A stretch of 51,857 nucleotides of DNA from a virus (IMGVR_UViG_3300042545_000475:1-51857); one strand, 5' to 3'. Shown: positions 6,102-45,980, counted from the stretch's first letter. Program-made: numbers and translations. Notes: a model not told the origin generated them from the letters alone.

Positions 6102-6158
6102 GCCAGCGTTTGCGGAACTGCCACCGGGTTGTTTGCAATGAATCAAAAGGAGAATACC

Positions 6159-9100
6159 GTGAACCTGTTTACCCGTTCTGTTGAAAAGCGTGCTGGCCGT
6201 GTGTACCGGGTGGATGGGCAGGACAGCCTGCTTGCGATTGACAGGGTGTCTGACAAGATCGTCACCGACGACAGGGTCATGGCGGCGACAGCCGTGATCT
6301 CCACCCCAATGATTGATCGTGATGGGGATGTGGTATTGCAGGAAGGGCTGGATTTCACGAACTATCGGCGCAATCCAGTCGTGTTCTTCAATCACCAAGC
6401 GTGGCCTGTGCCAATCGGCAAATCCGAGGACCAGCAGGGCAGGTCCACGATCATCGTGACCCCAGAGCAGACTACGGCTACCTGCTATTTCAGCAGCAAG
6501 TCGAAAGAGTCTGAGCAAATCTACCACCTTGTGGCTGACGGAACCCTGCGCTCTACCTCTATCGGGTTCCTCGTAAAACGGGCCACACCGCTCACATCCA
6601 GCCCAATGCTTGGCATGGGTCGTATGAGCCAGACTGGCAAACCGGGCGGCTATCGCATTGAGAATGCAGAAGTCACCGAGTGGTCGTGGGTTGGCATCGG
6701 GGCCAATCCTGAAGCTGTTTTGGTTCACTTGTCCAAGGGCATGATTGCAGGCAGTCAAATTGATGACAGGCTGCGTATGGCACTTCAACCCTATTCGGCG
6801 ATAAAAAAAGTCATGGTCGATTCTGGAATTGATGTGAAGTCTTTGTCTTTGGGTCAGGAGCGTGAAACTGTGGAAGCATTTGACTGGAATGCCCCCAAGG
6901 CCAAGATGCTGGAGCGTTTCGGCTCTGCCTTGAAATCGTTCATGCCCGAATACAGCGAGTATGTGGTCAAGGAATTCAGGGAAGACGACCATCCACGCAA
7001 TCCTGCGGGTGGAGAGCATGGTGGCCAGTTTACTGCAAAGCCTGAGTCAAAAAAACCTGAAATGACACCGGAAGAGGAAGAGGCACACTTCTCGCAGTTC
7101 TACAAGCCTGTTGGGAACGCAACGATGCGACAGGCTGTTGAAAAGCCATCTCAACGCCGATACCATCATGCCGGTCCAGAGGAGGCACATCAGCTTCATC
7201 CCAACTTGAACATGAGTGCCAAGCTTTCCGAAGCAGAGCTTGCTGAGGTTAATTCCAAGGGGCCTGCGGCGATCCTTGCTGAAACCAAGGACATGAATGC
7301 ACAAAGACAATTGGATGGGTTGGACAAAATTCGGGAGAAACATCCAGAGCCTTGGAAAGACATCGACTCTTGGAATGCTTTTCAGGCAGCGGCGTACAAA
7401 AACAAAACGGTGCCAATCCCACCGTTCAACTTCTTGAAAAAGCTTTCAGATGGCACGCTGGCAGACCGGCTTGTGAAGTTGGAACCGGGACAATTAAAAG
7501 ATGCTGATCACGGATTCAGAAACGCCAAAGAGTTTCGTGACTTGTACACATCCGGCGAAGTGGGCGTTACGACAACAGCCAAGCTGTTTTTGTGGTCGAT
7601 TCTTTCACGGGGTGTTAGCCCGTATGTTCAGGAATCGCTTTTTATCGACGCATACGCTGGTGCGGAAAAATGGATCAACAAGGCCGCAAACGGCGAACTG
7701 ACAGAAGACGACATATTTGGCCCTAAAATTCTTGACGAGAATGGCGAAGTTGTAATGGTGCCAAAAATGCACCAAGGCAAGATTATGAAGGATAAGAAAA
7801 CCGGCGAACCGATCATGGAGCCAAAGCGTGGCCCGTCCGCTTACGAAGAGTGGGTCAAAACCGTTGCTCCAGCGCAGCAGGGAATTCCGGGTGCTGGATC
7901 AACGCACAACCTTGGAGCATTTGGTCGCAACTTTTTATGGAAATTGTCGCAGAAAGACGAGAACGGCGTAAGCCATCTCCAAAAGCTTCACGACATGATG
8001 TGCGACCCCAATCAAACGGGGCGTGGCATCAGGCGTGAATTCTCCAAGTTTGGCGAAGGCTGCGGAATCGACAACAAAGTGGTGTCGTTCACCCTGCTTG
8101 TCGCAGGATTTGACGATGTCATGGTTCTCGACCGGGTCCAGATGAGAAACCTGTGGGACGATGGCCGATTTAAGGATTACAATCTGTATGACGGCCTAAG
8201 TGATGTCAAAAATTCGGCGCTTAACCGGCTTGGCGAAGGTGTCCGTGGCATCATGTATTACGAGGCGATTGAGGATGCGCTGAAGGAACGGCTTGCAGAG
8301 ATCAGCAAAAAGGTTGGCCGTGACATCAGCATTGGTAGGTATCATTGGGAAAGCTGGGTGTCAGCTTCGGAGCAGGAAGCGTCCCATGGAACGCTGGATG
8401 CTATCCTGAAAGATGCAAAAGGTCAGGACAATGTTTTGGCCGGTGTGCAGGCAAAACAGGGCGAATATGCTGCTTACCAGTACGGCGCACGATATGGTCG
8501 TGACGAAAAGGGTGAGCGTTACATAGAATGGACCTGCCCAGCAGGTGTCAAGGATTCGCCAAAAAGCATTAAATTTTCGATCCCTGAGTTCAAGATGTTT
8601 TCGGAATATCTTGGGGGAACCCGAAATAAAACCAGTGTGGTGCCAAAGGGATTTTCTGTCTCAAATCCACCACCGGAACACAAGGACCAGCCGTGGTATG
8701 AACGACCCCAAATCAACAAGCAGCGACTCATCGAAGAAGCCCAGCGATACGCCGCCGGAGAAGGAGGCAAAAAGAAGCAAGGGGGACGAACTTCTGATGA
8801 GAATTCTTCACGGAAGAAGGGGAGTTCCGATGGTAGTCGAGCCAACGAGGGATGGCCTTGGCTACGGGGAGGATTCACCGGAAGATTCAGAGTGATAAAG
8901 CGTTGTTGGGAAGGTTACGAACCCGTTCCCGGCAAAAAACCGTACAGCGAGGATAGCTGTAGGCCAAAAGACGCAGGAATGAACATCAACGACGAGATCG
9001 AAAAAGCGGGCCTGCAAGACTGCGTGTCTGCCAAAATACCCAAGCTGATCAAGGAAGGCTACGAGCCAGATCAGGCTGCGGCCATCGCCTACGACATGTG

Positions 9101-9701
9101 CAGGCGTGGAAAGGCAGAGCTTGACGAGTCCACAATAGAAGAAAAGGCAGTATCCATGGTATCGGCGGATGCGCTTGTGCCATTCCCAAGTCAAGACGAT
9201 GAGGAGACAAAGTCAATGAATACGATGGGCAACGCACAGGGTAACAAGCCAATGCCTCCCGGCATGGCATACGCACAAGCCGCCAAAGAGCTTATGGAAG
9301 CCGCCTACGAAATGCAGGAGAATCCTTCTGTAAAAGAATACATGATGCGCCAGTACGGCGACCTCAAGCGCATGTGTTCCAAGGCCTACCCTGAATGTGA
9401 TCTTGAGTGGAAGCTTGAGGTTCCAGAAGACGAAGGCAAGCCCATGGAGAGCGATGACTACGAGATGAAGGGCGAACACGGCGAACCTGACGGCGACGAA
9501 GGCACGAAGCCAATGAAGCCAATGAAGCCGAAAAAAGAAGACGACGAAGACGAGATGGACGACGAAGAGGACGGCGAGGAAGAAATGGACGAGGAAGAGG
9601 ACAAGGCCTACAAGTCTCTTCTAGAATCGCTAAATAAATTGGTGGTCAACTTCAGCGGTATGCAGAAGGAATTTGACCGCATGACTGGTAAGGTGAAATA
9701 A
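6159..9701 (+). CDS. Prohead protease (HK97-type) fused to an internal HhH-GPD glycosylase-like domain and an acidic scaffold-like C-terminus
   Basis: DRDGDVV, NPVVFFNH..PIGK, STSIGF and EWSWVGIGANPEA protease motifs; GTG 6159 follows AAGGAG (ATG 6138 is an alternative start); internal GIDNKVVSF...VLDR motif. Confidence 0.85.
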   Translation: MNLFTRSVEKRAGRVYRVDGQDSLLAIDRVSDKIVTDDRVMAATAVISTPMIDRDGDVVLQEGLDFTNYRRNPVVFFNHQAWPVPIGKSEDQQGRSTIIVTPEQTTATCYFSSKSKESEQIYHLVADGTLRSTSIGFLVKRATPLTSSPMLGMGRMSQTGKPGGYRIENAEVTEWSWVGIGANPEAVLVHLSKGMIAGSQIDDRLRMALQPYSAIKKVMVDSGIDVKSLSLGQERETVEAFDWNAPKAKMLERFGSALKSFMPEYSEYVVKEFREDDHPRNPAGGEHGGQFTAKPESKKPEMTPEEEEAHFSQFYKPVGNATMRQAVEKPSQRRYHHAGPEEAHQLHPNLNMSAKLSEAELAEVNSKGPAAILAETKDMNAQRQLDGLDKIREKHPEPWKDIDSWNAFQAAAYKNKTVPIPPFNFLKKLSDGTLADRLVKLEPGQLKDADHGFRNAKEFRDLYTSGEVGVTTTAKLFLWSILSRGVSPYVQESLFIDAYAGAEKWINKAANGELTEDDIFGPKILDENGEVVMVPKMHQGKIMKDKKTGEPIMEPKRGPSAYEEWVKTVAPAQQGIPGAGSTHNLGAFGRNFLWKLSQKDENGVSHLQKLHDMMCDPNQTGRGIRREFSKFGEGCGIDNKVVSFTLLVAGFDDVMVLDRVQMRNLWDDGRFKDYNLYDGLSDVKNSALNRLGEGVRGIMYYEAIEDALKERLAEISKKVGRDISIGRYHWESWVSASEQEASHGTLDAILKDAKGQDNVLAGVQAKQGEYAAYQYGARYGRDEKGERYIEWTCPAGVKDSPKSIKFSIPEFKMFSEYLGGTRNKTSVVPKGFSVSNPPPEHKDQPWYERPQINKQRLIEEAQRYAAGEGGKKKQGGRTSDENSSRKKGSSDGSRANEGWPWLRGGFTGRFRVIKRCWEGYEPVPGKKPYSEDSCRPKDAGMNINDEIEKAGLQDCVSAKIPKLIKEGYEPDQAAAIAYDMCRRGKAELDESTIEEKAVSMVSADALVPFPSQDDEETKSMNTMGNAQGNKPMPPGMAYAQAAKELMEAAYEMQENPSVKEYMMRQYGDLKRMCSKAYPECDLEWKLEVPEDEGKPMESDDYEMKGEHGEPDGDEGTKPMKPMKPKKEDDEDEMDDEEDGEEEMDEEEDKAYKSLLESLNKLVVNFSGMQKEFDRMTGKVK

Positions 9702-15919: not shown

Positions 15920-16233
15920 ACGCCTACACGCTGTACGCACCGTTGGTTGATAAGCCGTGGCTTCTTTCCATGGAAGACATAGCCAACCTGACTGACCGGC
16001 AAATAATTGACATCTATTACCGGGAACGAGACAAGGATGGCATTCCAAAGGATTATGAAGATACTTACGGCAAGCCAGCCAACGGCCTAGCGCAGGAAGA
16101 GGAAGAAGAGACAGTCAGGATCAAGTATTTTGCCATGGGTCACGGCTTGAGGATACCAGAGGAGAAAATAGAAGAGGGCTGGCAGCTGTATTTGGAAAAG
16201 AAACGCAAGCAGGAGAGTGCCAGTCATGGCTGA
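15851..16233 (+). CDS. -1 frameshift extension of the tail chaperone (gpGT-like)
   Basis: The -1 frame is open from the A-run (15851-15863) through the 15943..16233 ORF. Confidence 0.75.
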
Positions 16234-18583
16234 CAACAAGATCGACGAAGCATACATTGAGTTGCGTGTTGACGGCCTTGATGTTGTCAAGAACGCACTG
16301 GAGCAGGCAAGAATAGCATCTGAAAAGCTTAATTCTTCTTTTTCGGAAACTCAAGAAGTCATTGACGGCATGACTTCTAAAAATTTGAATTTCCCAAAAA
16401 CACCTCAAATTCCAGAACCAAAACCTTTACCACCAGTCCCACCAGTACCTCCAAATAATCCTCCAAACGAAGAGTCTCTGAGGAAGCTTGATCTTATAAA
16501 GCAAAAACTAAAAGAGATGCCCGTTTACGGGGAGCAGCTAGACTCAATAATTGATGGCACTGGAAGGCGTATTTCAGCGCTTGATTTGTCGAACATTGAT
16601 GCATTGCGGGAAGGTCTTATAAATGCTTCTTTAGGTGGGAAAGAGTTACTGAAGTCTTATAATTACGATGAGACAAACGACAACGCTTTACGATTCCTTG
16701 GAATACTCAGAAGAATTGACAGCCTAGCAAGGAATGCAGCTTCAAAGTCTAGTAAATCACAATTTGATCCATTCGAAGGTCAGCAAGAATTTGGTTTTCC
16801 ACGACCTCCGCAGCCTCCCGGCCCACCAAGCGCTGGTGATCGTGCTGCTGAATTTGTTGAGAATCTAAACAGGAGAAACGAAGAGCGGATCGAAATGATC
16901 CGTGAGCTTACAGCCTTATACGACGATATGGCGAGGAAAGAATCGGCTGTAGCGAATGCCACCAAGGACAGGATTGACGCTCTACAGCAAGAGCATCGGG
17001 CTTACAACGAGGGCAGGTACGGCGAATCTCAGCAGATGATTGCTGGTCTTATCGATGCAGAAAAGAAGCGCATCGAAAAGATCAGCGAATTGAAAATGCT
17101 ACAAGAAGGCCTTGTCGTCACAGACACAAGGGCCGCTGCGGCAGTCAAGAAAAAGATTGAGGCTCTTGAAAAAGAGCAGAAGGCCTACGAGTCTGGTGGC
17201 CGTGGGATGCTTGGCAACATCATGGCCAACATCCAAGACAAGACCGCCAACTTCCGTGAGAAGGTTGGAACACTGCGTGGTGCGGTTGCAGGGCCGACGG
17301 GCGAAGGTATTCGTGGCGCTATGGGTGGTGGCCTGTCTGGCATCACTCAGCTTCTTACACGCACCATGGGTCCTGCATTGGCCACTGCTAGTGCTGGTCT
17401 TGCGGCAGTTGCATCAGTAGTAGCGCCAGTGGCCGCAGGAATGGCTGCGCTAAAAGGCGTGTTGATAGCAGCACCGGCTGCGTTCGTCGGTGCTGCATAT
17501 GCCATCAGCAAGTTCACTGACTCAGTAAACCCCGGCCTGACGATACAACTCAACATGGTTATGCGTGACCTGACAGCAATCATTGGGACAGCATTAAACC
17601 CTGTGTTGCAGGCCATGGTTCCGGCCATTCGTGATTTTGCCAACAGGCTTTTGCCAGTCACCCGTGATATGGCACAGTACTTTAGCGGCCTGATGGGTTA
17701 CATGGGTCCAGTGATGACTGCCTTCAATTCGATGTATCAGCAGATTGTTGGCACATTGTCGCCAGTATTCAAGCTTCTTACCGACATTTTTGGTGTACTG
17801 GCACAAGTTGTTGGTGCGCTAATGGAAGTGATTGCGGGCATCCTTATCCCATTCAAAGTAGTATTTGAAGCAATTTACGAAGTCTTGCGGCCTTTGATTG
17901 AGGCTTTTCGTGTTATTGGCGATTTGCTTGTCAATGCTGGCAAAGGATTCCGCCTCATAATGGCAGGATTGGAAGGCTTTATTAAAGGTATTGCCAGCTT
18001 TCTTGGATTCGGTGACATAATTAACGCATCTGTGGATGGCTGGAAATCAATTGGTTCAGCCCTCAAATCATTCCAAAACTGGCTTATTCTCGCCGCAGCA
18101 TCTGTTGCTAAGTTTTTTGGTATGACATCATTTGTCACCGGCATGATCAATAGCTTGAAGCCGCCAGACTCTACCGGAATATCAGCTGCACAGAACCCAC
18201 AGTACCAGTCCATTGAAAGCCTTGGCAAAAACATGTCATTGCAAGCCGCAATCGCAACGGCTGGTGCTGGTGGAGAGTCAGAGCAGCAAAAGCAAGACAG
18301 GCAGATGCTGGAACAATTGGTGGCAATTCAAGCAAACGGTCCAACCCTTGTGGATGCAATCAACGGCTTGCCAACCAGAATTGCAGACGCAATTGCCAAT
18401 GGGGCAAAAAGGACGGCAGACGCTGCAAAAAGTGCTATTACGCAAGGTGTCGGTGATGCTACAGGTTTCAACCTTGGCTACGAAGGCGCACGCCTTGCAA
18501 GCGAATCGGCTCGTGGTAGTTTCTTGGATACCCAGCTTGCCGCAATGAACAAAAGAAATGCCGCACGGTTCGTGCAAGGATAA
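16226..18583 (+). CDS. Tape measure protein
   Basis: Long helical Ala/Gly/Leu-rich ORF after the chaperone; MADNKIDEAYIEL start; amphipathic repeats. Confidence 0.85.
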   Translation: MADNKIDEAYIELRVDGLDVVKNALEQARIASEKLNSSFSETQEVIDGMTSKNLNFPKTPQIPEPKPLPPVPPVPPNNPPNEESLRKLDLIKQKLKEMPVYGEQLDSIIDGTGRRISALDLSNIDALREGLINASLGGKELLKSYNYDETNDNALRFLGILRRIDSLARNAASKSSKSQFDPFEGQQEFGFPRPPQPPGPPSAGDRAAEFVENLNRRNEERIEMIRELTALYDDMARKESAVANATKDRIDALQQEHRAYNEGRYGESQQMIAGLIDAEKKRIEKISELKMLQEGLVVTDTRAAAAVKKKIEALEKEQKAYESGGRGMLGNIMANIQDKTANFREKVGTLRGAVAGPTGEGIRGAMGGGLSGITQLLTRTMGPALATASAGLAAVASVVAPVAAGMAALKGVLIAAPAAFVGAAYAISKFTDSVNPGLTIQLNMVMRDLTAIIGTALNPVLQAMVPAIRDFANRLLPVTRDMAQYFSGLMGYMGPVMTAFNSMYQQIVGTLSPVFKLLTDIFGVLAQVVGALMEVIAGILIPFKVVFEAIYEVLRPLIEAFRVIGDLLVNAGKGFRLIMAGLEGFIKGIASFLGFGDIINASVDGWKSIGSALKSFQNWLILAAASVAKFFGMTSFVTGMINSLKPPDSTGISAAQNPQYQSIESLGKNMSLQAAIATAGAGGESEQQKQDRQMLEQLVAIQANGPTLVDAINGLPTRIADAIANGAKRTADAAKSAITQGVGDATGFNLGYEGARLASESARGSFLDTQLAAMNKRNAARFVQG

Positions 18584-20618: not shown

Positions 20619-21686
20619 ATGGGTGCTGGTGCGTATGCCAATCTTCTTGCCGGTAACTGCGTGGCAGAGCCTGTAAGGTTCTGCGCCCCGTTCAAGGAGT
20701 TCTGCGTTCATACGCTTGGTGGCTCACCACCAATAGGCTCATACCCTGATTCGGGCCTGTTTGGTTGCAATGCATACACCACCAATGCTGGGACTCAATT
20801 TCTGGACAACCCCCGCATTCCAGACGCACTAACACGGCACAAACTGTACGGGCAAACCACATCAGCTGTAACATTGCCAACATACTTTCAGGCATCAGAC
20901 CTTGCCCCGTGGAGGTCACGCAGGGTCATCATGCCGACAGACCCATACAACATTCGTGCGTCCGGCCCTGCGGTAAAGCAGGCCCACATGTACACCATGC
21001 TTCGCAGAAGGCTAAAGGGTTCGTCGTCACCAAACAACAATGATTATGCAAATAGGTCCGGCTTTTATTTCACTGATTCAAGCGTGGCTTACAGCAACCA
21101 GCAGGACTGGATGGGATTTTTGCACCCAGCCATGTGCTTGTGGACGAACAAAGATGTGCCTGAGCCGCTCAATGCGGTTAATTATTACGAAGATTCTGGT
21201 GCCAACCCACCATATTCAGACACCTACAACAAGCAATTTATTCCCTTCTGCACTCCAGTGAACACATACAACTCCTCTGGAACACTTCTTGGCCAATACA
21301 TCGGCTACACGATGATGTTTTATTTTGGTATGGCGTTCCTGAAATATCCGATACCCGGATTTAAACCAGAGGATTATTACAGCACCAGCCCGACACCGCC
21401 AGAAGTCACGCCCACATATCAATTTTTTACGATTGACTGCCACCTATTCCTTGTGGGTTCACCGGCATCAGGCCAGACTCTCAAATCGCCAAAGATTGGA
21501 TCGGCACGGTACTGGACTTACAACAAAGATGGAACCACTTGGAACATTTGCGACCAGTATATGTACATGCTCAACGGGGCATATACAACTAACTGGAAGT
21601 TCAATGTTGCGTTCAATTATGTTGGAACCGGCAGTGAATCGATTCTATTTAACATGTCAAACCTGAATGCGTATGTGACCCCATGA
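20619..21686 (+). CDS. Hypothetical tail-region protein
   Basis: 355 aa ORF rich in Tyr/Pro/Thr. Confidence 0.7.
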   Translation: MGAGAYANLLAGNCVAEPVRFCAPFKEFCVHTLGGSPPIGSYPDSGLFGCNAYTTNAGTQFLDNPRIPDALTRHKLYGQTTSAVTLPTYFQASDLAPWRSRRVIMPTDPYNIRASGPAVKQAHMYTMLRRRLKGSSSPNNNDYANRSGFYFTDSSVAYSNQQDWMGFLHPAMCLWTNKDVPEPLNAVNYYEDSGANPPYSDTYNKQFIPFCTPVNTYNSSGTLLGQYIGYTMMFYFGMAFLKYPIPGFKPEDYYSTSPTPPEVTPTYQFFTIDCHLFLVGSPASGQTLKSPKIGSARYWTYNKDGTTWNICDQYMYMLNGAYTTNWKFNVAFNYVGTGSESILFNMSNLNAYVTP

Positions 21687-23851
21687 CAACTTATAACCAG
21701 AATGTCGCTCAAAATGTGTGCGGCGATTTGCCTGTAACCATACCCGTAAACATTGACTGCTCACTGTGCGCCATTGGATTCCCACAGGCTGGTGGCATGA
21801 TAGGCATCAGTTTCTACGGTCCACGATGCCTGCCAACATCAGACCCAAGTCCAAGTTACTGGCTTGGATTTGGAACAAAAATGGCTCAATTCAAATGCCC
21901 AAATCCGGGCCAAAATGCCGAGCCTAATCCTAATACTTGGGTGGCCACAGGATTTTTCGGTGGCGCATCGTCTGGTGGATGCTCTAATCAGTACAGGTTT
22001 GACGCAACCCTGACCGCATTGAGCCAGACGCAAATAAGCATCAGCATATTAGTAAAAGTGCTTGCGGCAACAACTGGTGGCTGGTCGTGGCAGAGTTATA
22101 TGTCATGGTCTGAAACTTTGACAGAGGTGGTAAACTCAGACCACACTAGATACCGTGGCAGGGCTTTTGCCAGCCCTGACTTCGTGTCAGTGTCGCCAGC
22201 ATCTGTCGGCGGCTCTGGCGACCCTGTCAGCTTTGTAAAAACAATCGTTGGCATGACATCCATGCGTGTTGGTTGTGGATCAACAGGCAATGCAGTTCCA
22301 GACATTTGCGGATTCTGGGACGGCACTCAATGGCTTACATGCCTGCGTGGTTTTGTCAGGTCAACATCGAATTACAACATCCGTGGATTTACCCAGTTTG
22401 GTTTTAATACTCCAACTTGCAATACACTAGACTCATGCGGTTGCGACACCATCAATCTGACATCTACCAGTCCGCCTGCTGGGACATGCACTTACAATTC
22501 CAATGCGTTTGCTGCCACATATGGCGTTCTTGGGCTTCCGGGCGGCGTTGAGGCCATTGGTGCCATCCAGCAGGTGCAACACGCACCAGCAGTGGCAGGA
22601 ATCGACATCGTCGTCAAGCAAGTTAATGGCGGCGCTATATACATTTGCACCAACGACAACGGTGCTGGGTGGGTAATCTCAGCCGCAACTGTCAGCCAAG
22701 CCAAGGGCCCAAGAATCTTAACGGCGACACGATCAGGATTTGAAGTCATACTGTACGCCCTGAACTTTCCCAACGACAATCTGCTGGCAGACGAGTGTTC
22801 CAGTGGTGGTGCTTATCCAGCCTCAAATCCGGCTACAGACCCGTACTGGTGTACATCAGCTGGGTGCGTACAATCTCCTCTTCAGCCAGCAGGCGCTTTT
22901 GGTGGCCCATATTCCAGCAGTTCGGCTTGCACAACAGCCTGTGCTGAACTCGTCCCGCCAAATCCACCGTACTGGTGCGTGGCAAGCGCCTGCGTCCAAT
23001 CGTCAACTCCTCCAGAAGGGTATACCGGAGGACCATACGCTTCGCTAGCCATATGCCAAGCTGCATCCTGCGAACCTGCGCCTCCATCAGGTGACTACTG
23101 GTGCTTGTATGGAAGCTGCGTCCAATCAGAAACGCAACCAGATGTCTCGGCTACTGGGCCGTATGCGTCAGCTGCGATTTGTGCAGAAAACTGCTCAGGC
23201 CCGCCCCAGATGGTCTGGTATTGCTCAGATTATGGTTGTTCAACAATAACAAGATCTAGTGCGATAATGAATGGTTACACTTACTATCTTACGGAAGCAG
23301 CTTGTAATCCTTCATGCCCAACGCAGTTCTGGTGTGTTGATTTTGGCTGTGTCGAGTACTGGACTGGTTATACGCCAACAAGCCCATCAGCTGGGCCTTT
23401 TGCAAACATAGAAGATTGTTACACGGAATGCAGCACAGGGGCTGGTTGGTACTGCCTTAGTGGAACATGCGGGTATTACACAGACAGGCCACCGGGGGCA
23501 ACAGGACCAAGGTCAAGTAGTTATTTAGAATGCCAACCAAATTGCTTTGTGTTGTTTGAAGGAACGCTTCCACCTTCGGCTCTGAAAGGCCCTCCAGAAG
23601 AGGCTTCAGGAATCACGCCGGAGCCTGTCAGGCAAATTGGGCAGTCAATGCCTGCCAGATTGTTTTCAGATGCTCAGATGGCCAAAATCAGGCTTTCATG
23701 CGTGTACCGTGGCGGAAGGATTGATAACGGTTTCACTTGAAGCCGTACCCAATACGCCTGCGGTCTGCATGGCACCTGCTCACTGATCGACAACACTACC
23801 GGCGTGAAAGCCTGCATCTCTTGTGATGATTACAGGCCAAATGATTCCTAG
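21683..23851 (+). CDS. Cys-repeat tail-region protein with an in-frame UGA (23738-23740) probably decoded as selenocysteine; stops at 23740 without readthrough
   Basis: The frame stays open 36 codons past UGA and completes a Cys/His motif; SECIS-like hairpin at 23756-23773. Confidence 0.7.
23756..23773 (+). promoter_or_regulatory. Bacterial SECIS-like hairpin
   Basis: GCC-TGC-GGTCT-GCA-T-GGC; G-initiated apical loop 22 nt after UGA; resembles E. coli fdhF TGCAGGTCTGCA. Confidence 0.6.
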
Positions 23852-23967
23852 TACACTTGTACGCTTTATCAGGGGGTCTAACAGTCTGTTAAACCGTACA
23901 AGTGTACTTAGTACGGTTGTACGGTTTACGAACACTACCTACCCCCTACTAAACCGTACAACCGTAC
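23850..23967. repeat. Inverted-repeat locus A (two units, each with a 21-nt spacer)
   Basis: AGTACACTTGTACGCTTTA-N21-TAAACCGTACAAGTGTACT and GTACGGTTGTACGGTTTA-N21-TAAACCGTACAACCGTAC. Confidence 0.9.
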
Positions 23968-24051
23968 ATGCAAGGCATCGGTTGCTGGAACTCTTCTGGA
24001 AAGCTTATTTTGAATGCTGGGGCCGCAAATTAAGGCGAAAGGGGTATTTTC

Positions 24052-24477
24052 ATGCCAAGTCTCGTTTACAACTCGTTCATGCGAGACATAGCTACGGGTG
24101 CTGTGGACTGTGATACCGACACTTTCAAAATGCTGTTGGTTACAAGCACTTATACTGCTGCAAAATCTCACGCAAAGCGTAGCGATATTACGAATGAAGT
24201 AACTGGGGTTGGTTACACTACAGGCGGAAATGCTTGTGCCTTGACTGTTGCCGCTACGGATAATGTGAACAATGATGTTGAAATCTCGTTTTCTGTCACC
24301 TCTTGGACAAGTGCTACGATCACCGCAAGGGCTGGTGTGATTTATAAGTCAAGAGGCGGTCTTGCTACAGCTGACGAGCTTGTTGGCTATGTCGATTTCT
24401 TGTCAAACATCACATCGACCAACGGCACTTTTGCAGTAACCGTGTCCACTCCATTGAGTCTGACAAACCCAAGCTAA
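24052..24477 (+). CDS. Minor tail structural protein
   Basis: DTDTFKMLL..NEVTGVGYTTGG..WTSATITARAGVIY..DF pattern common in tail modules. Confidence 0.75.
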   Translation: MPSLVYNSFMRDIATGAVDCDTDTFKMLLVTSTYTAAKSHAKRSDITNEVTGVGYTTGGNACALTVAATDNVNNDVEISFSVTSWTSATITARAGVIYKSRGGLATADELVGYVDFLSNITSTNGTFAVTVSTPLSLTNPS

Positions 24478-41456: not shown

Positions 41457-41508
41457 GACGACTGCTGGCTGGTGCTAGCGTGCGAGGGTTCGATTCCCTC
41501 CGGTTGTC
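41457..41508 (+). ncRNA. tRNA-like mini-element (acceptor-like stem plus T-arm, lacking a full cloverleaf)
   Basis: GACGACTG/CGGTTGTC closing stem; GAGGG-TTCGATT-CCCTC. Confidence 0.5.
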
Positions 41509-45811: not shown

Positions 45812-45965
45812 GATGTACACTTGTACGGTTTACGGTGCGTCCTAGTACGGTAGTTAAACCGTACAAGTGTACATCGCCCATCTTATCAATATGTTAAAAC
45901 ACACAATGTACACTTGTACGGTTTACAAATACTGTATACCCCCTGTTAAACCGTACAACCGTACA
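45812..45965. repeat. Inverted-repeat locus B (two units, 22- and 21-nt spacers); candidate replication origin
   Basis: GATGTACACTTGTACGGTTTA-N22-TAAACCGTACAAGTGTACATC and ATGTACACTTGTACGGTTTA-N21-TAAACCGTACAACCGTACA directly after the primase-helicase gene. Confidence 0.85.
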
Positions 45966-45980
45966 ACGACCGGAGCGCAT

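Follow-up and report, generated by a model that had tools for sequence, protein, structure and literature searches.

Why should a gene in the tail module of a phage stop in the middle of a cysteine motif that the same reading frame, beyond the stop, goes on to complete? The question is raised by an IMG/VR virus record of 51,857 bp (hereafter the window, i.e. the whole stretch of DNA analysed here; rated complete by CheckV, with a G+C content of 52.3%), in which an ORF of 685 codons runs from an ATG to a TGA, ends ...SCVYRGGRIDNGFT, and is followed in frame by SRTQYACGLHGTCSLIDNTTGVKACISCDDYRPNDS and then a TAG (Table 1). The original prediction saw in this a selenoprotein gene of the bacterial kind, its UGA decoded as selenocysteine (Sec) at the behest of a hairpin (a SECIS element) just downstream. 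As a description of the locus it is accurate: the ORF does stop mid-motif, the frame does remain open past the TGA (the position 23851 given for the TAG is the last base of that codon), the spacing C-x12-UGA-x6-C-x2-H-x2-C-x11-C-x2-C is correct, and the extension lacks its own start, the first in-frame ATG, GTG or TTG past the UGA being a GTG at 23804 from which 15 codons are left. Taken from the window alone, the open extension and the fold that follows the TGA are not remarkable, and lie within chance: nine of the 25 plus-strand TGA-ended ORFs have in-frame extensions of at least 33 codons, and the local folding energy after this TGA (-7.8 kcal/mol) can be set beside a range of 0 to -13.3 kcal/mol for the other stops of the window. 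It is only through comparison with homologues that the feature exceeds chance, and it is on that comparison that most of what follows depends.

Table 1. The UGA-containing gene, its parts and its neighbours in the window
Feature	Position	Strand	Remarks
Terminase, portal, head proteins, head-tail adaptor			Head module of the window
Tape measure protein	16217-18583		
Four unassigned genes			In the interval from the tape measure gene to the UGA-containing gene
UGA-containing tail-module gene	21683-23740	+	As TGA-ended ORF
Codons 1-685 of the tail-module gene	21683..23737	+	N-terminal all-beta domain, Cys-rich repeats, start of C-terminal Cys domain
C-terminal Cys/Sec domain (putative)	23699..23848	+	C-x12-U-x6-C-x5-C-x11-C-x2-C; alignment of 37 domains; profile search
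In-frame UGA, codon 686, proposed Sec codon	23738..23740	+	TGA in 19/19 sources; invariant Cys column; also in contigs of four other runs
36-codon continuation, completing the Cys domain	23741..23848	+	Invariant Cys693, Cys699, Cys711, Cys714
SECIS-like hairpin, GCC-UGC-[GGUCU]-GCA-U-GGC	23756..23773	+	Loop 23762-23766; invariant loop G, U at 23763-23764
TAG, proposed true stop of a 722-residue product	23849..23851	+	
phrog_644 protein	24052-24477		After the UGA-containing gene
Tail fibre, 1602 aa	24494-29302		

The order of genes across the window is of the siphovirus type, and the UGA-containing gene can be called a tail-tip gene only because it sits between the genes for the tape measure and the tail fibre. 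DNA of the window is present in lake and freshwater metagenomes, and no RNA dataset is listed among the sequencing runs that matched it. The gene had neither a DNA nor a protein match among INPHARED phages, and its product matched no family in Pfam or PHROGs.

What, then, do relatives of the protein have at the position of the UGA? A protein search gave 48 relatives, 21 of which were aligned: 14 of these extend through the UGA position into a Cys-rich C-terminal domain, and in six (34-79% identical to the protein of the window) the gene call stops right at ...(S/N)GFT, as it does for the window ORF. DNA loci were fetched from viral contigs (30), genomes (one) and metagenomes (41), and 65 sources gave a parsable C-terminal domain, 46 with cysteine (Cys-forms) and, with the window counted, 19 with UGA (UGA-forms); the other loci, save one (L039), end upstream of the domain. 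Genome contigs gave a single match, a Cys-form from a contig of a Sphingomonadaceae MAG. A further UGA-form (L039), with the same GFT-stop and hairpin motif, is cut by a contig end. An alignment of the 37 distinct C-terminal domains (14 UGA, 23 Cys) has as its invariant columns C21, G25, C34 (the column of the UGA), C41, C47, C59 and C62.

The UGA column is occupied by Cys in all 23 distinct Cys-forms, and across the homologues it holds UGA or Cys only, with Trp or a variable residue in none, as the original prediction needed. The in-frame stop within the domain is TGA in every one of the 19 UGA-form sources (14 distinct sequences), and never UAG or UAA; the final stops of the same sources are TAA or TAG, except for one TGA. 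Past the UGA, the frame continues without an extra stop or frameshift in 19/19 sources, via Y-x-C-[GS]-L-H-x-x-C ... C-x-x-C-x-D-Y. Two hallmarks of selenoprotein genes are therefore to be seen here: a conserved UGA with conserved coding beyond it (four invariant downstream Cys in 14 distinct sequences), and Cys aligned with the UGA in homologues. The possibility of an assembly error, also raised at the outset, can be answered from the same data, because the 14 distinct sequences agree, and because the TGA and the hairpin recur, with no alternative letters, in contigs of another four lake-water runs, which come from four studies: the TGA is real.

The two forms differ in other ways around this column. 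Cys-forms have one additional Cys beside it (as CxC or CGxC) that is absent from UGA-forms, and the latter have a local signature of their own, C-x-[HNY]-R-G, plus G-[FY]-[TSG] ahead of the UGA; synonymous variation in the codons of this signature indicates that the constraint is at the level of the protein rather than the RNA. The closest juxtaposition of the two forms involves a protein of 221 aa (P0051), the last 70 residues of which are identical to the read-through product of one of the UGA-form loci (L004), except for a Cys at the place of the UGA; its mate in a 90% cluster, P0197, terminates at ...GFT. No match to a degenerate pattern for the DNA of P0051 was found in the viral contigs. 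P0051 and L004 probably represent a natural Sec/Cys swap between near-identical phages.

A UGA that is to be read as Sec in bacteria needs a signal in the RNA, and the original prediction had placed one at a hairpin, the first loop G of which is indeed the 22nd base past the UGA. A hairpin is present in all 14 distinct UGA-forms, with a stem of 5-7 bp and a loop that starts 22-25 nt after the UGA. The loop consensus is RGUYU, and its G-U is invariant, at 23-27 nt after the UGA across the 14 sequences. The 23-mers of the 14 UGA-forms have predicted folding energies of -6.5 to -9.9 kcal/mol (mean -8.25), whereas the mean for 24 distinct Cys-forms is -2.54 kcal/mol, with only four of the 24 at -6 or below (L061, at -12.7, and L008, L040 and L047, which have a small hairpin in a shifted position). 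The hairpin is thus kept in UGA-forms and mostly missing from Cys-forms. In its inner stem, UGC/GCA is invariant, and the codon used there for Cys41 is TGC in 14/14 UGA-forms versus 14/24 Cys-forms.

Is the hairpin conserved as a structure, or only as a consequence of the protein that it encodes? Five stem types were found, GCCUGC/GCA(U|C)GGC (bulged), UCAUGC/GCAUG(G|A), UCGUGC/GCACGA, GCGUGC/GCACG and GAGUGC/GCACUC, with compensatory changes in three of the six stem pairs and 89% of cells paired in the no-bulge register; when the register was slid, pairing fell to 11-49%. None of 500 shuffles reached the observed covariation, a control that overstates the significance on account of the relatedness of the 14 sequences. 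RNAalifold, unprompted, predicted the identical helix. The inner three pairs, being invariant, are uninformative on covariation and are partly dictated by the residues Cys-x-Leu-His, and the number of independent events is small. Against this may be set the behaviour of the dipeptide HG, nearly fixed in Cys-forms, which in UGA-forms is replaced by HE, HD or HS, with a matching change in the partner codon; that it changes in step with the pairing suggests that protein conservation here gives way to RNA pairing. Two lineages (GAGCA/UGCUC and GAAAC/GUUUC), but not the window, are predicted to form a lower stem that begins with the GA of the UGA. Built from the phage hairpins, a covariance model (R1) had one significant match in the whole window, at this site (34.4 bits, E 1e-7). 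In the L026 group of loci TGCGGTCTGCA occurs a second time; this copy was rejected as a SECIS: it has no UGA ahead of it and plainly encodes Q-C-G-L-Q.

How closely does the element resemble bacterial SECIS hairpins? These are described, in a structural paper on SelB, as having a 6-8 bp stem with a conserved loop G about 20 nt past the UGA (PMC4605307), and the 5-7 bp stem and invariant loop G-U of all 14 distinct sequences agree with that account of the hairpin. The fdhF gene of Escherichia coli (Sec140) provides a control: the string given for it in the original prediction, TGCAGGTCTGCA, is found in K-12 DNA, where the UGA is followed by 18 nt and then, from nt 19, by the loop GGUC, within GUUGCA-GGUC-UGCAC. 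An 8-mer of the apical hairpin, GGTCTGCA, is common to fdhF and the window. The two differ in the loop (a GGUC tetraloop in fdhF, and in the phage one of 5 nt, which shrinks to 3 nt if an additional A-U pair forms), in where the loop starts (nt 19 in fdhF, nt 22-25 in the phage forms), and in the lower stem, which in fdhF extends to the UGA and in the phage forms is predicted only in some lineages, the window excluded. More generally, the phage gene shares with bacterial selenoprotein genes that have an intragenic SECIS the in-frame UGA, the Cys in homologues, the coding-sequence hairpin directly downstream and, within the apical loop, a G-U some 20 nt from the UGA; as in bacteria, the trans-acting factors are not encoded beside the gene. 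It differs in being a phage gene, and one located in a tail module. Known bacterial selenoproteins are overwhelmingly redox enzymes.

The curated Rfam models SECIS_2 (RF01988) and SECIS_3 (RF01989) gave no match at E<=10 in 23600-24100, while scoring E. coli fdhF, as a positive control, at 87.1 and 35.8 bits respectively; conversely, R1 gave no match at E<=10 to the E. coli fdhF SECIS. Because SECIS_2 and SECIS_3 are built on elements of the formate-dehydrogenase type, failing them is no argument against SECIS function. The phage element lies outside these two families, yet its predicted fold follows the overall plan of a SelB ligand. The only Rfam matches near the site were to miRNAs, on two long palindromes downstream, and were judged to be spurious.

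If the UGA is recoded, who supplies the machinery? The phage encodes none of it, as had been claimed: no tRNA genes were found in it, and no matches to SelA, to selD or to the SelB-wing_3 domain. A tRNA-Sec candidate at 41457-41508 scored 19.5 bits against a cut-off of 47 and lies across the start of the helicase gene, and was taken as a chance match. Since the phage is without machinery of its own, tRNA(Sec), SelA, SelB and SelD would have to be supplied by the host. As to what that host may be, the portal and helicase proteins have matches among cultured phages only below 35% identity, and the hosts of those phages are mixed; for the helicase, the closest are from siphophages of Pseudomonas, Variovorax and Xanthomonas (about 33% identity), which hints, weakly, at a proteobacterial host.

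From this, the gene emerges as a strong candidate for a selenoprotein gene carried by a phage, in which the UGA is probably recoded in the bacterial manner, in dependence on the SelB of the host. As a ribosome reaches the UGA, host SelB carrying Sec-tRNA(Sec) would bind the hairpin, which starts 16 nt downstream, the ligand being a 6-bp stem topped by an RGUYU loop, whose invariant G-U lies 23-24 nt past the UGA. Sec would be inserted at codon 686, and translation would continue for 36 codons to the TAG, giving a 722-residue virion protein of the tail module in which read-through has completed a small domain at the C-terminus, one that holds six invariant Cys/Sec positions. Termination at the UGA would give instead a 685-residue product without four of those six. 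The phage would contribute the cis element only. That this makes for selenium-dependent isoforms, or for a redox switch, as the original prediction went on to propose, is speculation.

Could the UGA be read through without SelB? A near-cognate tRNA (for Trp or Cys) or a host suppressor might decode it now and then, at low frequency, with the hairpin acting as a stimulator or pause and the short and long products made in a fixed ratio, much as in the precedent of the Q-beta A1 read-through protein. A conserved UGA, a conserved extension and a hairpin are required equally by this model, and it would sit comfortably with the lack of an Rfam SECIS family match at the site. We nevertheless consider it unlikely: insertion of Trp would break a column that is invariantly Cys in the 23 distinct Cys-forms, and Cys also in P0051; the stop is exclusively UGA; the stem length, the loop G-U and the distance of the hairpin are as described for SelB ligands; and we know of no hairpin-stimulated read-through in bacteria.

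A good deal less likely still is that the TGA is a true stop and the 685-aa protein the intended product, the downstream frame being a decaying remnant or a separately expressed mini-peptide. Gene callers do terminate there (26 of the fetched database homologues are called as ending exactly ...GFT), and extensions of comparable length are common within the window, but a remnant would not be expected to retain a co-varying hairpin, nor four Cys unchanged across 14 distinct sequences, the clades of which differ down to about 33% overall identity, with frameshifts or extra stops in none of the 19 sources; and a mini-peptide would find no start codon nearer to the UGA than the GTG mentioned above. 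That TGA is a sense codon in the phage or its host (NCBI tables 4 or 25), or that it arose by sequencing or assembly error, would account for the open frame and for nothing more, and can be dismissed, since TGA is the commonest ordinary stop of the phage (27 of 49 ORFs of at least 100 aa, often in ATGA overlaps such as that at 21683-21686, where the UGA-containing gene itself starts), which excludes genome-wide reassignment, and since the same TGA is found in the 14 distinct sequences and in the contigs of the four other runs.

How are the two forms distributed among the homologues? A quick maximum-likelihood tree was built on the N-terminal domain from 43 distinct rows (13 Sec, 30 Cys), and it places Sec-forms in at least two deep clades; by parsimony the Sec/Cys label changes four times on this tree, and its starred branches force at least three changes. 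Distant Sec-forms have C-terminal domains that are more alike than their N-terminal domains, making exchange of the C-terminal module likely.

What might the protein do, and what might Sec do in it? The N-terminal all-beta domain (approximately residues 1-375) gave an AF2 model for residues 1-385 with a pLDDT of 84, which in Foldseek searches of the PDB found nothing above TM 0.19, in BFVD matched solely an uncharacterised relative from an uncultured phage, and in VIA-align wide reached Z scores of 6.3 or less, to generic beta-barrels. It is followed, at approximately residues 385-625, by about seven four-Cys repeats (YWC..CVQS..QP..GPY..C..C), the number of which differs among homologues, short forms of 460-490 aa being without them. 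The C-terminal Cys domain opens at the Cys673 codon (23699); its AF2 model has a pLDDT of 52, too poor to place the role of the Sec position. When 1.84 billion representatives were searched with a profile of this module, 594 proteins matched at E<=0.001, in which the module occurs at the C-terminus of proteins of various sizes, as a stand-alone protein of 56-150 aa, or N-terminal to glycosyltransferases (PF11051, PF01755). The module is a mobile one.

That a protein synthesized in the cytoplasm has six invariant Cys/Sec positions suggests that they form a metal or Fe-S site, and the domain is most likely a metal-binding or redox module. The nearest functional analogy is with tail-tip proteins of the lambda gpL type, which have a C-terminal [4Fe-4S] domain (Cys173/182/205/212; PMC10721106): as far as that account of gpL goes, both would be siphophage proteins of the tail-tip region with a small, Cys-rich and probably metal-binding C-terminal domain, although the Cys spacing differs (Table 1) and the phage protein belongs to no Pfam or PHROGs family. 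Locally, two motifs separated by 17 residues, C-x-H-(R/L)-G and C-x-x-H-G, are reminiscent of the two boxes of Rieske [2Fe-2S] proteins, and a profile search of the PDB with the C-terminal alignment found only Rieske dioxygenase alpha subunits, non-significantly (E 0.58-1.9). A Rieske domain was rejected: both of its His columns vary here (the first to Y, N or F, the second to F or Y), and the window has Tyr at the first.

Do viruses offer any precedent? Full-text literature searches, their coverage stopping short of subscription journals, found no natural phage selenoprotein. Where a 2021 review on recoding in viruses turns to selenoproteins, just two are named, the glutathione peroxidases of two poxviruses, molluscum contagiosum and fowlpox (PMC8310308). 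Like the phage candidate, these are virus-encoded and rely on the Sec machinery of the host, and in fowlpox the SECIS is within the coding region; they are enzymes captured from cells by viruses of eukaryotes, and their SECIS elements are eukaryotic. By contrast, the phage candidate is a protein of a structural module, from a family without a cellular enzyme counterpart, and its hairpin is of the bacterial type.

Drawing these threads together, we think it rather likely, if less so than recoding itself, that this is the first natural family of phage selenoproteins, in which Sec is built into a metal-binding or redox domain at the C-terminus of a tail protein by means of host SelB and a SECIS borne by the phage. 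The complete protein, and perhaps the infectious particle, would then be tied to the selenium supply and sel genes of the host, and related phages of lakes would have swapped Sec- and Cys-forms on several occasions, perhaps in keeping with which hosts have the Sec trait and which lack it.

If this is so, the selenoproteome gains a virus of bacteria and a structural, non-enzyme protein, and phages are able to carry SECIS elements tuned to the SelB of their hosts. Gene callers truncate these proteins (as in the 26 entries ending ...GFT), so their C-terminal domain is missed by phage annotation pipelines; once recognized, the Sec trait would become a host clue for uncultured phages. Phage fitness would be linked both with a trace element and with an accessory trait of the host, and the natural Sec/Cys pairs in near-identical phages would provide a ready system in which to consider what advantage Sec may have over Cys in a particle that faces oxygenated water.

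In addition to the hairpin 3′ of the UGA, a lower helix that recalls that of the extended SECIS of E. coli fdhF is predicted for two phage lineages among the homologous loci, where the partner strand would be supplied by the codons 3′ of Cys47, one of the invariant cysteine columns of the domain alignment. The sequence of this helix is lineage-specific (GAGCA/UGCUC in one, GAAAC/GUUUC in the other); fold prediction gives none in the window or in locus L004. Two loci with cysteine in place of the UGA also retain hairpin potential at the SECIS-equivalent site (a fold of -12.7 kcal/mol in L061 and four contiguous pairs in L067), which may be left over from an earlier SECIS, or may be due to chance. 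The positions of these and the other features discussed here are collected in the table.

Secondary features of the phage record and of homologous loci
Feature	Position	Setting	Remarks
Lower helix from the GA of the UGA	UGA +1 to +50	L003, L009, L018, L033, L063, L066	Predicted, two lineages
tRNA-Sec model match, sub-threshold	window 41457-41508	Overlaps helicase gene start	19.5 bits, cut-off 47
1190-aa ORF	window 6129-9701	Portal or minor-head genes on one side, major head protein on the other	
Two Cys-form genes	L061:2302-2520; L067:3062-3277	Within or beside the deep Sec clade	N-terminal tree
Two pairs of long, near-perfect hairpins	window 23850-23968; 45821-45966	Intergenic	Shared arm TAAACCGTACAA
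Tandem array of four-Cys modules (about seven)	window about 22836-23560 (residues about 385-625)	Between N-terminal domain and C-terminal Cys/Sec domain	

ARAGORN detected no tRNA genes in the full window, and the match to the tRNA-Sec model is probably fortuitous. The first of the two long hairpin pairs, which starts directly 3′ of the gene's TAG, has a fold energy of -55 kcal/mol (z -6.3). A search of the window with the arm TAAACCGTACAA gave 12 matches at up to two mismatches (2.2 expected), seven of them exact, and all confined to the two intergenic sites. These structures may serve as terminators, or else form a repeat to which a protein binds; their sole Rfam matches, to miRNAs, are spurious. 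Arms resembling this one were also seen on other contigs from the lake-water runs.

Elsewhere, the 1190-aa ORF is very large, an unusual size for a head-module protein, and its PHROG match (head protease or major head protein) is limited to the first 200 or so residues.

In the tail-module protein itself, the four-Cys modules follow the pattern YWC-x4-5-C-[VI]-Q-S-x3-Q/P-P-x5-8-GPY-x6-C-x3-C, their number ranging from none to more than eight depending on the homologue, and neither Pfam nor PHROGs gave a family assignment. The C-terminal Cys domain was found in 594 representative proteins at E<=0.001 (database proteins P0056-P0196 included), some of them consisting of the domain by itself (56-150 aa) and others carrying it N-terminal to a predicted glycosyltransferase or methyltransferase (PF11051, PF01755, PF05050). 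It is a widespread module that has no name.
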